From IMG/VR virus record IMGVR_UViG_2671181056_000012, positions 1-17,566 of that record: a stretch of DNA of 17,566 nt, one strand, 5' to 3'. A program made the position numbers. How positions within the stretch are numbered: position 1 is the first letter of the stretch; each line of letters starts with the position of its first letter. Source of the DNA: a virus (taxonomy: Duplodnaviria; Heunggongvirae; Uroviricota; Caudoviricetes). This document shows, one piece after another, positions 1-6,000 of this stretch.

Positions 1-3000
1 CGCGAAATTTTAATCAGCGAGTCAGCTTGGGAAGAAATGACCTGCTTATTCGCACCTTCCCTAGGTGTCGGTTTCTCATTGGTGGAATATACCTTGATCC
101 ATTCAGAGCGACCGTTTTCCTGAATATTTCGGACGCGTAAACGTGGTGCGCCAGAAGTATTACAGGTTAATTGCCATGCGCCATGCTCATTAGCTTGAAG
201 GTGAATTAATGCTGTGTCGGTTGAATATGGATTACCGCTAGCAGTTCCCTTGTAAGTTACGAAACGGTTTCCGGCTAATGCCTCGCTATCAATTGGACCC
301 GTGAATGGATTTACACCAGCACCCAAACCAAAATCACCCTGACGTAAGATCCGGCCTTCGGTAGCAATACCCCTTGCCAGAATCCCGCCATCTGGTTCAA
401 GTTTAAATTCCAGTGTTACAGCTTTGTTATCACTACCACGGGTTTTATGTGATGTGACGTAAGCATCATAGATGACATAGTAACCAGTGTTAGCAGCACT
501 ATAGCCAGAGTTCACAACATAGAACATACGGAAGCGTAAAGGTGTTTTATCCTCTACCGCTTTCATCAACATTGCTTGATGTTCATCGTCAAGAACACGG
601 TTTAATGTGAGTGTTGTCGGTTCCAGTCTACGATAACCAGCAAGTTTCCCCGTAGCGTCCTGATCGTACTCTTCCAGAGTTTCTATCTCTGTGGATTCGG
701 TTAGCGTAGGGAATGCGGCGACGTTCTCAATAGAACTAAAGCTAGGATCGAAAAAGTCCGGCTGGCTATCGATCATAGTAGACACGGAGACTTCAACATG
801 TGATCCAGTGAAAATATCTAAGTTATCTTGTGTAATATTCATTATTACCCCTTAAAAACGCGCTAGATAAGAAAATTTAAGGCTAAGTGTCCCAACGATA
901 CCCCCATCACTAGAATCATCGTCATAATCGGTATTAGAAGCTACTGGAGTGATATCTGAAATAGAGAAGCCCAAATCTTTAAATCGTGGGTTATCCGGCT
1001 GAATCTGGATTATCTGGCAAATACCCTCATGAATTTTGGTTTCATGAATTTGAGAATATAATTGCATTTCGATAACGCATTCAGCTTGCATTGCATTACC
1101 ACCACGGACCCTAGTGTAAGTCTCATTCATTCCGGTAATCCAACACACCACGTCATCGCTAAAACCAGTTTGCGTTTGTTCTACGTTTAAAGCCAGACCT
1201 AGATCTTGTTCGATAATATCCTGTAAAGCACGTTTAATCTTAAGACGTGGCATATTATTAACGGTAGCGAGCATGTGCACCCCCTGCTAAAGTGATAAAG
1301 CAATCACTGGTATTGTCACCATTGCGCTTAATGTATTGAACTTTGAAACGCTGATTTTCTACAATGACAATATCACCCTGCTTTAAGTCTCCCTCACGAC
1401 AAAATAGAAATTCTGTTTCTGTCATTACCCCTGATTCGTCGGTAGTAGTAATTTCATGATAAGCACGAATTGATTTACCACCTTCCACCGAAAATACAGG
1501 AGCACTTTTAAACATTCTTGATAATTGTGATTCTGATAATTTGAACATAGTTACCCCCCTTTATGGAGTATTTACATACAAAAAAGCCCCACCGTTAAGG
1601 CAGGGCTAATTATTATTCTTTAGTTTTACGCTGTTTTTTAGCTGTGGCTTTCGCCTTAACCGTCTGGGATTCTTCTTCCGGTTCAGGAATCAGATTTTCT
1701 TCCCCCAAATCGGGGGAAGGTTCAGATGGTTCTACAGGAGTTCATTCAGCGGAGATGTGAAGAACTTTCAGCGCTTCCGGCTGGGTTACAACGTAATCCA
1801 GATCTACCCAGATACGCGGAACGATAGCAGACTGTGCGCGGTAGGTAGTGTCATCAATGTCAAGTTCCAGACCACCCCATTCACCGATGGTAATAGCGTC
1901 GAACGATCCCAGAACGATGTGGTCTACCGGAATAACACCAGAAGTAACTACGTCGTAACCAGCCAGTTTACCGTTTTCGATGATATAACCGGAAACACCG
2001 TTATCTTTCAGGGTAGATTCCAGTTCAGCAGCAGTTGCACCGCTCATTGCAAACTTGATCGCCTGAGCAGGAACGCCAGCGTCGGTCAGTTTAGCAATTT
2101 CTTTCAGGAAGTCTTTATAAGAGAAAGCAGCTTTCTTCTCTACGCGACCAGCATCTACCAGTTGTTTAATCACACCAGCCGGACCACGAGCATTTTCTTT
2201 GTCGGACAGAATCAGTTGTTCCAGTTTGATGCGAACAGCCTGGTTAATGTGATCAGTGATCAGGGTAGCGATGCCGGGTACGGTCTTGAGGCTAGCTCTG
2301 CTGATCGGATTCCCACCAGCAAACGTCTTAGGAGCCATTTTCACGTTTGCAAATTCAGCTTTACCTTCCGGCGCAGCACCGTTTTCATCAACGAAGCCGA
2401 AAGATTCAACGCTGGAAGCGGTCATTTTAGGAATAGCGGTCGGCGAAGTCAGACCAGACAGGACTTTCACACCAAGACGACCCAGAACGGATTCCGGCAA
2501 CAGCATCGCTACATAGGAATCATTCAGCAGTTTTTCGTCGGTTACAGCGGTCAGAGTAGCTTTGGTGTTACCATCAGCAGCAGCACGCATAGCAGCAGTC
2601 GGAACGAATACAGAGCCACCGCGAGCAGCACGACCACGCTGCATAGTTGCAGTAGCAGCCATTGCAGAAAACTCGGCTTCGTGAGCACCCAGAGCTTCAC
2701 CATCTACCAGAGAGCGAATTACGTTGTTCAGGTCAAAAGTTTTTTCCATTTTAGAGTCCTTAATTTGTTGTTCGTTGTTACGTTGAGCAGTAGCGATTTT
2801 ATTTAGTGCCTTAGTGCGGAATGCTTCCGGCGTCATGTCTTTAATTGCCAATGCGCGTTTCAATTCTTCGTCGTCAATATTTAGTTCCCGCGCGATCTCG
2901 CGGATTTCTAATTCGTCTTCTTCGGAACGTTCAGCCACTTCTTCGATTTTTTCTTCTTCAACCGGAGCGGCTTCACGTTCTTCTTTTACTTCTTCTGTTT

Positions 3001-6000
3001 CCCGAACAGTTGAATTATCATCATCAACACTTTCAGGATGTTCAGCGTCTTTTCCGTCTTCGAGATTTTCATCTTCTTTATTCTCTTCAACTTGGCGCTC
3101 TTGAGTTTCTTCAACTTTCGGTTCTTTATTTTCTTCTACCGGAGTTTCTTCAACCTGAGCGGGTTCTTGTTCTTCTTTGATTTCTTCGATTTGTTCTTTA
3201 GTCATATCGCGTTTAGCCTCCAAATTAACTGTGATAGTATTTAGAGAGCGATTTAAACCGACCGTATCGTCTGCGGGAACGGTGACAAATGAGAGTTCAT
3301 AGGGTGCCCACTTAGTAACAATCAATTGTCCTTTGGTGTAGTCGATGTGATATTCTTTAATGTCATAACCGACAGAAATTTTTTCCATCGTACCTTCAAT
3401 GACTTTATTGCGAATATCATTAGCCAAAGTGCCATGCTTAGAGAATTTAACCAGAGCACGACCTACGTTATCCGCATCGATTCGAGCGTTACAAACGACA
3501 CCAATGTGATTATCGAAATTATGATTAAACAGCAACGGAGCGTTATTATTCAGACGAGACAGATCAACCGCTTCCGGTGTATGTACCAGAATTTCATCTA
3601 ATACCACCATTTCTTGATTTTGCTCATCCCAGAATTGGCGCTGATAAGGCTGTTCACTGGAGAAAGCAATTTCAAATTCGTATTGATCGTTATGCCCTTC
3701 GTTAATAACTCCACCGTAACCGTTAAGATCGCGGCGAAATTTAAGCATTTAATCACCTTTAATTAATTGGGGGCATTGCGCCCCCGTTGGTTATTAGGGA
3801 TCGGTTTGAGAAGGGTTATCCTTGCTCTCACCATCAACGATAATATTTAGTGCGCTCTTTTCGGCTTGAATCTCTGAGAATACTTTTTCAGGATCATCAC
3901 CACGTTCTAATATAACGGCAGTACGTGATTTAAGACCATTTTGAATTAAAGCAATCTCGGCGTTTACGTCTTTAATTGGATCGACGGATTCAAAACGCGG
4001 ACGAATAATAGTTGTATTATCGATAATATGCGGGATTGCAGTAATACGAATCGGAACAATACCACGCGCGGAATAATGTCGAAGGTAACTTTCGAAAATA
4101 GGCAATACAACCGTCTCAATTAATTTGTTTTGCAGTGCTTTAATTCGGTTACGCTGAGTTAATTCACCAAAACGTGCGGCTGAGTAGTTGATCTGTGAAC
4201 AATCTCCTGTTAAGCCCTGTTTGAACACGCCTAAGCCCATTGATACGCTAGTAAACATCGCATCATTGAAGGAATTGAAATCATCACCGCTTTGCGTCGC
4301 CTGGATGCTCTTGATCGTTGCCCCTTCCGGCAATTCCTGAATAGTACCCGGTGCAAAGTCCTGTACTACTTCCGGCGCTTGATATTGTTCATCCTCTTCA
4401 CCAGTATCAAAATCGTCACCAGAATCTTTCGGACGTTCAATAAAGCCCATAGAGCTAGCTGCAATACGTTTCTGGACGATCGCGGTTTCGCGGAACGCTT
4501 CTTGATGCGCAATATCCTTAATCACTGGCAGGAAGTCAGTCACACCACGTAAACTTTCCGCGCACAGTGGCTGGTAGTAGTGGCACACCTGAGAAGCATC
4601 TACGCGATAATTTTCGCCAGTGTAGGTCTGAGTCAGTAGATTGATTTTTCTAAACCAGTATGCTACAGGGCGCATTGTGTCTACGTCATACTCAATCCCC
4701 TGATAGATCGCACGTTCTTTGCTTATTTCACGACTAAGCGACCAGTCGCACCTATCAGCAGACAGAATAGAAACTTGTAACTCATTGTTCTCTTTGGTTA
4801 AAACGATGAAGCATTCTCCACCCTGAACACGTTCAGATTCTGCCATTGCCAGCATTTCACGGAAGTTAAAGCGACCGTTGCGAGAGAAGCGTTTAGCACT
4901 CTGCGCCCACTTCCAGAAAGCATTCTCGATCTGCTTATTCAGTGCGGTGTCAAGTTTGCCATTTGATTTAACGATTGATGGTTTCGGATCAAGCCCCGTA
5001 CCAACAACTTGGTCAACGATATACTGCTTGTATCGCTTACCTACAGCATTGTTTATAGCCAGAGTACGACCCTGATCATAAAGGCGCTTACCGTTTGATT
5101 TGAGAGCCTTATTGAAGGTTCCTGTAATGGTGTCTTGTTGAAGTGATCCATCAATACGATCACCAACCAGTCCTAAACTACGAGTCGCCAGAGATTTCTG
5201 GAATTTTTCTACTTGTTTGTCGATGAAAATTTTTGGTTGTTGCTGGCGGTGATTAGTTTTAACTGGAGTTTCTACCGCCTTTTTGCGTCGAAAAAGATTA
5301 AACATGATTTACCCCTTATCGCGTAAGACGTAATTTGATATTTTTAATCGGGCTAATTCCCTGTTTACGTCGTTCGGCTTGAATTAATTTAGATAACTGA
5401 CGTTCATAATCAGTCTTCAATTGCTGGAGAACACCCAATGACTCATAGGCGAAAGTATTCCCTTTCACGGTCATTTGAGATAATGCGGCTTCGTCCCCAG
5501 ATAAACGGGCGAAAATAACTTGCTCGATTAAGGCGATAGTTTCCCGCAGATATTCTTTTTTGGATTGTTTGGCGAATACTGGCAATACAGTTAATTCCTG
5601 CATTGATACCAGTTCATCTTCCAAAGTTGTTACGATGGTATATTTACCTTCGGCAAAATCTAAGGTTTTAATCTCGTGATTAGCCGGAGTATCATCAACC
5701 TGATAAATGATACCTTTACTATTTCCTACCTGAATTGTTACACCCTCTTCATTCGCCAGCGTGACTTTTTCGCCTTTACGAATTACTAAGGGAATTAGTT
5801 CTAAACTCATAATTACCCCTTATTTAATTGTTATTGGATTAACAATATTTAGGAGTAAGCCGCCCCGAAGGACGGCGAGTTATTAGAACGATGTTACCCA
5901 GCTACGGCCTCTATTTGGGCGTCTGGCGATGTTTTTACGTTGTGGTCGTGTGATTGGCTTATTTTCTTCGATTTGCTCGTCAGATTGCGATTTAGGAGCT

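Follow-up and report, generated by a model that had tools for sequence, protein, structure and literature searches.

The window analyzed here is a stretch of 17,566 nucleotides (nt) of viral DNA (Caudoviricetes; positions 1 to 17,566 of IMG/VR record IMGVR_UViG_2671181056_000012) that is an E. coli prophage, and our subject is a long open reading frame (ORF) on its minus strand that joins an HK97-type prohead protease, an acidic scaffold-like linker, and the major capsid protein in one polypeptide. Our analysis indicates that this gene is probably not a simple fusion and rather a set of nested co-C-terminal reading frames that would set the protease-to-capsid ratio. This reading is based on two in-frame ATG codons with Shine-Dalgarno (SD) sequences inside the ORF, on the recurrence of such sites in diverged relatives, and on a step in codon usage that coincides with them.

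In the arrangement that we envisage, initiation at the annotated ATG (3748) would yield a 74-kDa protease–linker–capsid polyprotein, initiation at M334 as the main internal site would give a capsid precursor of 35 kDa whose helical propeptide spans about 60–65 amino acids (aa), and initiation at M182 as a weaker site would give a 53-kDa linker/scaffold–capsid protein. Their common capsid domain would let all products co-assemble in one procapsid, so that a few full-length subunits could deliver the S78 protease to the shell interior together with the acidic scaffold-like region, with no separate targeting signal. The initiation ratio would thereby set the protease : scaffold : capsid stoichiometry, and after assembly the protease would trim all forms N-terminally to about residue 395–399, leaving a subunit of ~270 aa. 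We infer from the sequence that the internal sites are initiators, and likewise the relative product amounts, the co-assembly, and the position of cleavage. The features of the gene are as follows (window coordinates, strand, description):

1742..3748, minus: full ORF, a protease–linker–capsid polyprotein of 668 aa and 73.7 kDa with its TGA stop at 1744..1742
3752..3760, minus: AAAGGTGAT, the SD serving the annotated start, whose ATG (3748..3746) lies 3 nt downstream; duplex of -10.8 kcal/mol with the extended anti-SD
3254..3688, minus: HK97-type (S78) prohead protease domain, aa 21–165 (Pfam; AlphaFold, confident fold)
3203..3221, minus: candidate internal start M182, GGAGG (3221..3217) + 11 nt + ATG 3205..3203; predicted product 487 aa, 53.0 kDa
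2936..3241, minus: disordered acidic linker, aa 170–271, isoelectric point 4.1, AlphaFold predicted local distance difference test (pLDDT) <50
2747..2761, minus: candidate internal start M334, AAGGA (2761..2757) + 7 nt + ATG 2749..2747; predicted product 335 aa, 35.3 kDa
2639..2923, minus: conserved helical pre-domain, aa 276–370, delta/scaffold-like; five helices with pLDDT 86–96; family consensus
1745..2566, minus: HK97-fold capsid body, ~aa 395–668, likely the mature protein of ~270 aa and ~28.6 kDa (Pfam, TIGR01554, 8GTA)

Domain architecture and candidate start sites

The original prediction, made from the sequence of the window alone, had described one ORF encoding protease, acidic scaffold-like linker, and capsid protein, and Pfam, PHROGs, and an AlphaFold model all bear out this architecture, with the gene on the minus strand. 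The profile search that had been proposed as a check found both domains above curated cutoffs, i.e., Peptidase_S78 (Pfam PF04586) at aa 40–162 with 41.6 bits vs a cutoff of 21 and Phage_capsid (PF05065) at aa 410–664 with 79.7 bits vs 24.2; the TIGR01554 capsid model likewise scored 62 bits vs 27.5. The TIGR01543 proheadase_HK97 model reached 37.2 bits and thus remained below its equivalog cutoff of 59, so that the window protease is a relative of this family and not an equivalog. Similarly, the NCBIfam model for prohead protease/major capsid protein fusion proteins (NF045541) gave 132.9 bits vs a cutoff of 525 and aligned only to aa 22–346; the window protein has the architecture described by this model and belongs to a different family. 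Matches to PHROG 617 and PHROG 4523 carry the annotations "major head protein" and "major head and protease protein".

The AlphaFold model of the 668-aa protein was built on 80 homologues and has a mean pLDDT of 82. Within the protease domain, neither His76 nor Ser125 varies among the 80 aligned sequences; the two lie 49 residues apart, which equals the spacing of the catalytic pair H65/S114 of HK97 gp4. The linker contains 40 aspartate or glutamate residues among its 102 aa. In a Foldseek search, the top match was the capsid of phage R4C (8GTA, E 8e-19), followed by HK97, D3, SaPI1, and gene transfer agent capsids with E about 1e-12, and together with the profile matches this identifies the capsid part as an HK97-fold major capsid protein. 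The homologous chain in the R4C virion starts at a residue that corresponds to about aa 399, and helices 276–370 precede the fold; from this chain and the TIGR01554 coordinates, the mature N-terminus likely lies near aa 395–399.

Among the 25 in-frame ATG, GTG, or TTG codons of the ORF, those with the strongest anti-SD duplexes are M182 (-9.3 kcal/mol) and M334 (-5.8 kcal/mol), and both are located at domain borders, with M182 directly after the protease domain. There are probably two nested starts here rather than one. The prediction had named only the second of these, and its ATG at 2749 with an AAGGA 7 nt upstream is indeed present as described. However, the accompanying claim that the capsid domain begins exactly at M334 is imprecise, since the HK97 fold starts about 60 residues later, near aa 395–399. 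The M334 product would therefore retain a propeptide of about 60–65 aa and would be a capsid precursor distinct from the mature protein.

At M334 the surrounding RNA is rich in A and folds less than shuffled controls (z = +1.0), and folding calculations gave no ranking of the three starts, which are about equally accessible. A scan for sigma-70 promoters detected none within the ORF and none upstream of M182 or M334. With no internal sigma-70-like promoter and unstructured RNA at M334, the shorter products would arise by translation and not from a separate transcript. Neither the exact 335-aa nor the 487-aa product was present in the protein collection that we searched, i.e., no gene caller has emitted them.

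Conservation of the candidate internal starts and the codon-usage step

The motif AAGGA-N5-10-ATG occurs in the window at chance frequency (4 observed vs 4.0 expected), and a single sequence is therefore no proof of a start; support has to come from relatives. These were gathered by tblastn and peptide-pattern scans and comprise a close set of 32 IMG/VR relatives (88–98% aa identity), a mid set of 23 loci at 28–47% identity together with Escherichia phage DCP80, a subgroup of 17 window-type sequences from about 12 distinct lineages (about 30–36% identity), and a distant set of 99 fusion genes from very diverse bacteria (about 25% identity). The phage collection gave no match when searched with the gene by megablast, and a search for homologous proteins found only relatives at 96–100% identity, which are of no use for assessing conservation.

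In the close set, the AAGGA, the ATG, and their 7-nt spacing at M334 are invariant in 32/32 sequences, and the residues encoded between AAGGA and ATG vary (DSK, EQI, EKN, ESI, or ESK). The site persists at much greater divergence: 16 of the 17 window-type sequences have an AAGGA 7 or 10 nt before an ATG in the same alignment column as M334 (the 17th has ATT), again with variable residues between motif and ATG and embedded in a linker that is barely alignable otherwise. The lysine codon within the SD motif of this site is always AAG, as opposed to a gene-wide AAA:AAG ratio of 670:189, and a lysine adjoining the methionine, where present, is encoded by AAA.

Equivalents of the post-protease site with an (A/G)AGGA and a spacing of 6–9 nt, i.e., better than that of M182 in the window, are found in DCP80 and in the loci L117–121, L128, L132–136, L139, and L170. 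A strong SD-ATG no more than 45 codons past the protease domain is present in 79/99 distant relatives and also in the cultured phages ep3, VP882, and R4C, so that the post-protease start appears to be the family-wide one. Eight sequences of the window's own subgroup have no post-protease SD-ATG and retain the M334-type site.

To put these sites into perspective, we compared what share of ATGs has a strong SD at the post-protease border (B1), at the M334-type border (B2), and in other parts of the gene. In the set at 28–47% identity this fraction is 0.82 at B2 and 0.41 at B1, and in the distant set it is 0.74 at B1, vs 0.06–0.15 in the interiors of linker and capsid. Out-of-frame ATGs in the border stretches have a strong SD in only 0–14% of cases (p = 2.5e-20 and 1e-9); specifically at the M334-type border, a strong SD accompanies 82% of in-frame ATGs and 0% of out-of-frame ones (p = 1e-9). 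As an alternative source of this signal we considered that a purine-, Glu-, and Lys-rich linker might create spurious SDs, which is ruled out by the methionines in the linker interior (8–15% with strong SD) and by the out-of-frame ATGs; since the latter rarely have an SD, purine-rich composition does not explain the signal. Taken together, start codon and SD are kept in diverged relatives to a degree that the encoded protein does not require.

A second line of evidence comes from codon usage. The codon adaptation index (CAI) is 0.377 for aa 1–333 and 0.639 for aa 334–668; split by part of the window gene, it rises from 0.32 (protease) through 0.44 (linker) to 0.64 (capsid part). The best CAI change point falls at codons 317–333 with a statistic that was reached by 0/2000 within-gene synonymous shuffles. 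Per-amino-acid codon tables show the shift directly for Leu, Gly, Ala, Thr, Asn, Gln, and His, e.g., CTG encodes 5/21 leucines before M334 and 24/29 after it, and AAT encodes 17/25 asparagines before and 3/11 after. The capsid half is as well adapted as the best gene of the window, and the protease part is like other phage genes. These CAI values would fit initiation that is weak at M182 and strong at M334.

The polarity is not confined to the window. The CAI of the protease part is below that of the linker and capsid part in all 25 closer genes, and the effective number of codons (ENC), a measure free of host-specific weights, points in the same direction, with the capsid part more biased than the protease part in 110/123 fusion genes (39.3 for the capsid, 46.5 for the protease part; Wilcoxon p = 3.5e-18), whether the host GC is low, medium, or high. 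For most lineages whose codon usage resembles that of E. coli, the codon-adaptation step is located at an internal SD-ATG: the change point lies at codon 317 in the window gene (M334), 181 in DCP80 (M180), 178 in L117 (M181), 187 in L118 and L120 (M186), 293 in L123 (M298), 308 in L183 (M303), and 218 in ep3 (M216, GAGGA + 7). It falls at M178 in L122 (179) and beside M195 in L130 (194), where the methionine has a weak SD or no strong one, respectively, and 31–42 codons past the SD-ATG in L119 and L121. If only the full-length product were made, all codons would be read equally often, and neither the step nor the ENC asymmetry would be expected.

Two further claims of the original prediction can be judged from these data. 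A switch in codon usage at M334, from AT-rich to host-optimal, is real, and the idea that the capsid protein has its own in-frame start nested in the gene, as in lambda C/Nu3, gains support from the SD-ATG conservation in relatives. The proposal that protease and scaffold are delivered in cis needs amendment: because of the probable second start at M182 after the protease, the scaffold would probably not be delivered only in cis with the protease.

Several observations weigh against nested reading frames. With regard to M334, this residue lies within a confidently predicted helix (307–337) and thus at no structural boundary, and the M334-type site is confined to one subgroup: DCP80-like relatives have a leucine in the M334 column and a weaker, G-rich SD-Met 8–12 codons upstream, and in the set at about 25% identity only 13% of M334-region ATGs have a strong SD. 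The annotated start also has a good SD, so that the full-length form need not be rare. On the side of method, our statistics treat kin sequences as independent, meaning that the p-values overstate the case although the effect size stays large, and the CAI values depend on the weights used for E. coli (Sharp & Li 1987). Furthermore, the gene is visibly mosaic among close relatives, and sliding synonymous diversity in these shows mosaic blocks with no clean dip at the SD.

Some of these points also speak for a competing explanation, in which all capsid protein is made as the 74-kDa fusion and self-trimmed, the SD-ATGs are relics of ancestral starts or pause sites, and the gradient in codon bias arises otherwise, e.g., from slow translation aiding protease folding. 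The strong SD of the annotated start and the chance frequency of AAGGA-N5-10-ATG in the window would agree with such a single polyprotein, as would the facts that public annotations all give one coding sequence and that NCBIfam and PHROGs treat the product as a fusion protein. However, relics would neither retain AAGGA or GGAGG together with ATG at the nucleotide level down to 25–35% protein identity nor be limited to in-frame ATGs, and an equal ribosome flux predicts neither the bias step nor the lower ENC of the capsid part. In addition, by our own arithmetic, 415 copies of a 37-kDa N-terminal part would fill about half of the interior of a T=7 procapsid (T, triangulation number). We therefore consider a single polyprotein unlikely. 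The weight of the M334 motif lies in its being in frame, at the codon-usage change point, and conserved.

Alternatively, M182 could be the working start, giving a capsid protein that resembles HK97 gp5 and has a long delta domain, and M334 could be minor or unused. Its SD duplex is the strongest of the internal codons, the post-protease site is the one found throughout the distant relatives and in R4C, ep3, and VP882, and the CAI rises somewhat across M182 (from 0.32 to 0.44). Nevertheless, the 11-nt spacing after its GGAGG, which also counts against M182 as one of two nested starts, is well past the optimum, which Chen and colleagues reportedly placed in 1994 well below 11 nt. Likewise, the GGAGG has decayed to GGGGG in 5/32 close relatives, the large codon-bias step falls at 317–333 and not at 182, and the eight subgroup sequences devoid of a post-protease SD-ATG have kept the M334-type site. 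We regard this second explanation as highly unlikely. Finally, a recombination scar, i.e., an E. coli-adapted capsid module joined to an AT-rich protease–linker with a coincidental SD-ATG at the junction, is hardly credible: the patchy synonymous diversity among close relatives (protease 0.115, linker 0.057, capsid part 0.178) does show intragenic recombination, but the codon-bias polarity recurs at 25–47% identity in low-, medium-, and high-GC hosts, which needs sustained selection and not one recent event, and the SD-ATG is conserved across those lineages.

Genomic surroundings and a candidate extension

The fusion gene is present in 49/5426 complete E. coli genomes, always annotated as a single capsid protein; the copy in ETEC4085 (NZ_CP122634) has 98% identity. 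In the window, it stands in the order TerL (large terminase), W-like head-tail joining protein, portal, fusion gene, and a small, weakly FII-like protein. This is the head-gene order of lambda with this one gene at the place of C/Nu3 and E, and no separate protease or scaffold gene was found. Three further features flank the ORF:

3768..3786, minus: GC-rich hairpin, GGGGGCGCAATGCCCCC, that follows the portal stop codon and precedes the fusion-gene SD; lacks a U-run on the coding strand
1610..1741, minus: candidate read-through extension, 42 in-frame sense codons after the TGA, then TAA TAA
1585..1607, minus: terminator-like hairpin and T-run, 9-bp stem with 6 GC pairs, downstream of the gene and its extension and before the next head gene

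The terminator-like hairpin could raise the dose of capsid transcript relative to the downstream genes. Upstream of it, the capsid gene ends in TGA-A, followed by the 42-codon extension TPVEPSEPSPDLGEENLIPEPEEESQTVKAKATAKKQRKTKE, then TAA TAA and the terminator; a read-through product would read ...ISAE-W/X-TPVEPSEPSPDLGEENLIPEPEEESQTVK across the stop. A TGA-A with an open extension of 28–45 codons is present in 33/33 close relatives, and the homologous basic tail of the extension stays in frame across indels of 14–16 codons. The extension has no internal ATG, and stops abound in both alternative frames. Its variation by codon position is 9/13/13, i.e., there is no third-position excess and no clear purifying selection, and 24/24 relatives at 28–47% identity end in TAA with no conserved extension. 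The extension may represent programmed read-through of the Qbeta A1 type or a relic.

The closest phage record is that of Escherichia phage DCP80 (L002, PQ671644; positions 1–9929), which has 43% identity and the same terminase–W–portal–fusion synteny. The entry is 141 kb long, is classified in Straboviridae/Tevenvirinae, and labels these genes as hypothetical. To find head genes of lambda-like type in a T4-type record suggests that the entry is misclassified or was assembled as a chimera. Another match, P0142 from the search of family representatives (297 aa), consists of protease and linker only and ends at the linker end; it is either from a lineage with a separate capsid gene or a truncated call.

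Elsewhere in the window, an ORF of 313 aa at 12380–13321 (plus strand) has a CAI of 0.64, equal to that of the capsid half and far above its neighbours. It matches no PHROG or Pfam family, is annotated as "hypothetical" in E. coli genomes, and is overlapped by a long antisense ORF (12383–13192), as is common with strongly biased genes. At 14947–15942 (plus strand), a GC-rich ORF (0.57 vs about 0.42 nearby) with a transposase match (PHROG 157, E 4e-36) is an insertion sequence element within the prophage, which explains thousands of partial matches of the window in E. coli genomes. The stretch at 10700–11790, about 1.1 kb, contains no ORF of at least 50 aa on either strand.

Family-wide reading and comparison with known systems

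A total of 6252 family representatives (clusters at 50% identity) were found, and these are annotated everywhere as one protein. Extending our reading of the window gene to this family, we see about equal grounds for and against the proposal that most HK97-type protease–capsid fusion genes are nested sets, in which the post-protease start would make the bulk of the capsid precursor and the full-length form would be a minor protease carrier; the window clade would then add a second internal start for a capsid precursor with a short propeptide and possibly, by UGA read-through, a form extended at the C-terminus. Such a fusion poses a stoichiometry problem because each capsid subunit comes with its own protease and its own scaffold region, far above what known procapsids contain. 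If the proposal is true, conserved internal starts would solve this problem in the way of lambda C/Nu3 and herpesvirus UL26/UL26.5, with the capsid protein itself now included in the nesting. A single ORF would then encode up to four or more proteins with a stoichiometry set wholly by translation, and a large phage and prophage gene family would be under-annotated. These genes would also offer a clean natural system for how initiation ratios program capsid assembly, and an intragenic codon-bias step could be used as a sequence-only detector of nested genes.

The architecture of protease, scaffold-like region, and capsid protein in one ORF is already known from NF045541, PHROG 4523, and published phages. 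Pseudomonas phage MD8 gp5 is annotated as a protease–capsid fusion, though with a ClpP/lambda-C-like protease unlike the one studied here, in a paper that also discusses the head genes of lambda, Mu, and P2 (PMC8508860). Annotated protease–capsid fusions have also been described in Arthrobacter phages of clusters AM, AU, and AN (PMC5513430), and roseophage R4C gp6 is a protease–capsid fusion whose virion subunit is formed by the last 268 residues (PMC10276861, PDB 8GTA). R4C gp6 is a homologue of the window protein at 30% identity. Our reading differs from these accounts in that the gene is described there as one product. A literature search of incomplete coverage found no account of internal initiation or of an intragenic codon-bias step in protease–capsid fusions.

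In lambda C/Nu3 and Mu I/Z, an in-frame start within the protease gene gives rise to an abundant co-C-terminal product. The window gene resembles both in having internal in-frame start candidates in a protease gene and a common C-terminus that would take the protease into the procapsid, and it shares with lambda C/Nu3 the genome position after the portal gene. Unlike in these systems, what the products would have in common at the C-terminus is the major capsid protein and not a free scaffold, two internal starts are apparent, and the protease is of the HK97-type S78 family and not of the lambda gpC type. Herpesvirus UL26/UL26.5 encodes a protease–scaffold protein and a nested scaffold protein, the latter from an internal promoter and a separate mRNA. 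As proposed for the window gene, nested co-terminal products set a low protease : scaffold ratio there, and the protease fold is related to that of phage prohead proteases. However, we found no counterpart of the internal promoter in the window gene, and the herpesvirus capsid protein is encoded by a separate gene (on UL26/UL26.5, see also PMC11565193).

The most direct comparison is with HK97 gp4 and gp5, which belong to the same protease and capsid families and in which gp5 with its delta domain corresponds to the predicted product of the post-protease start. In contrast to HK97, no stop separates the protease and capsid parts, so that a covalent protease–capsid species would be made as well, and the extra start of the window lineage would shorten the delta-like region to about 65 aa. 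By analogy, nested translation within a protease–capsid fusion would be a new arrangement that follows the logic of lambda C/Nu3, Mu I/Z, and UL26/UL26.5.

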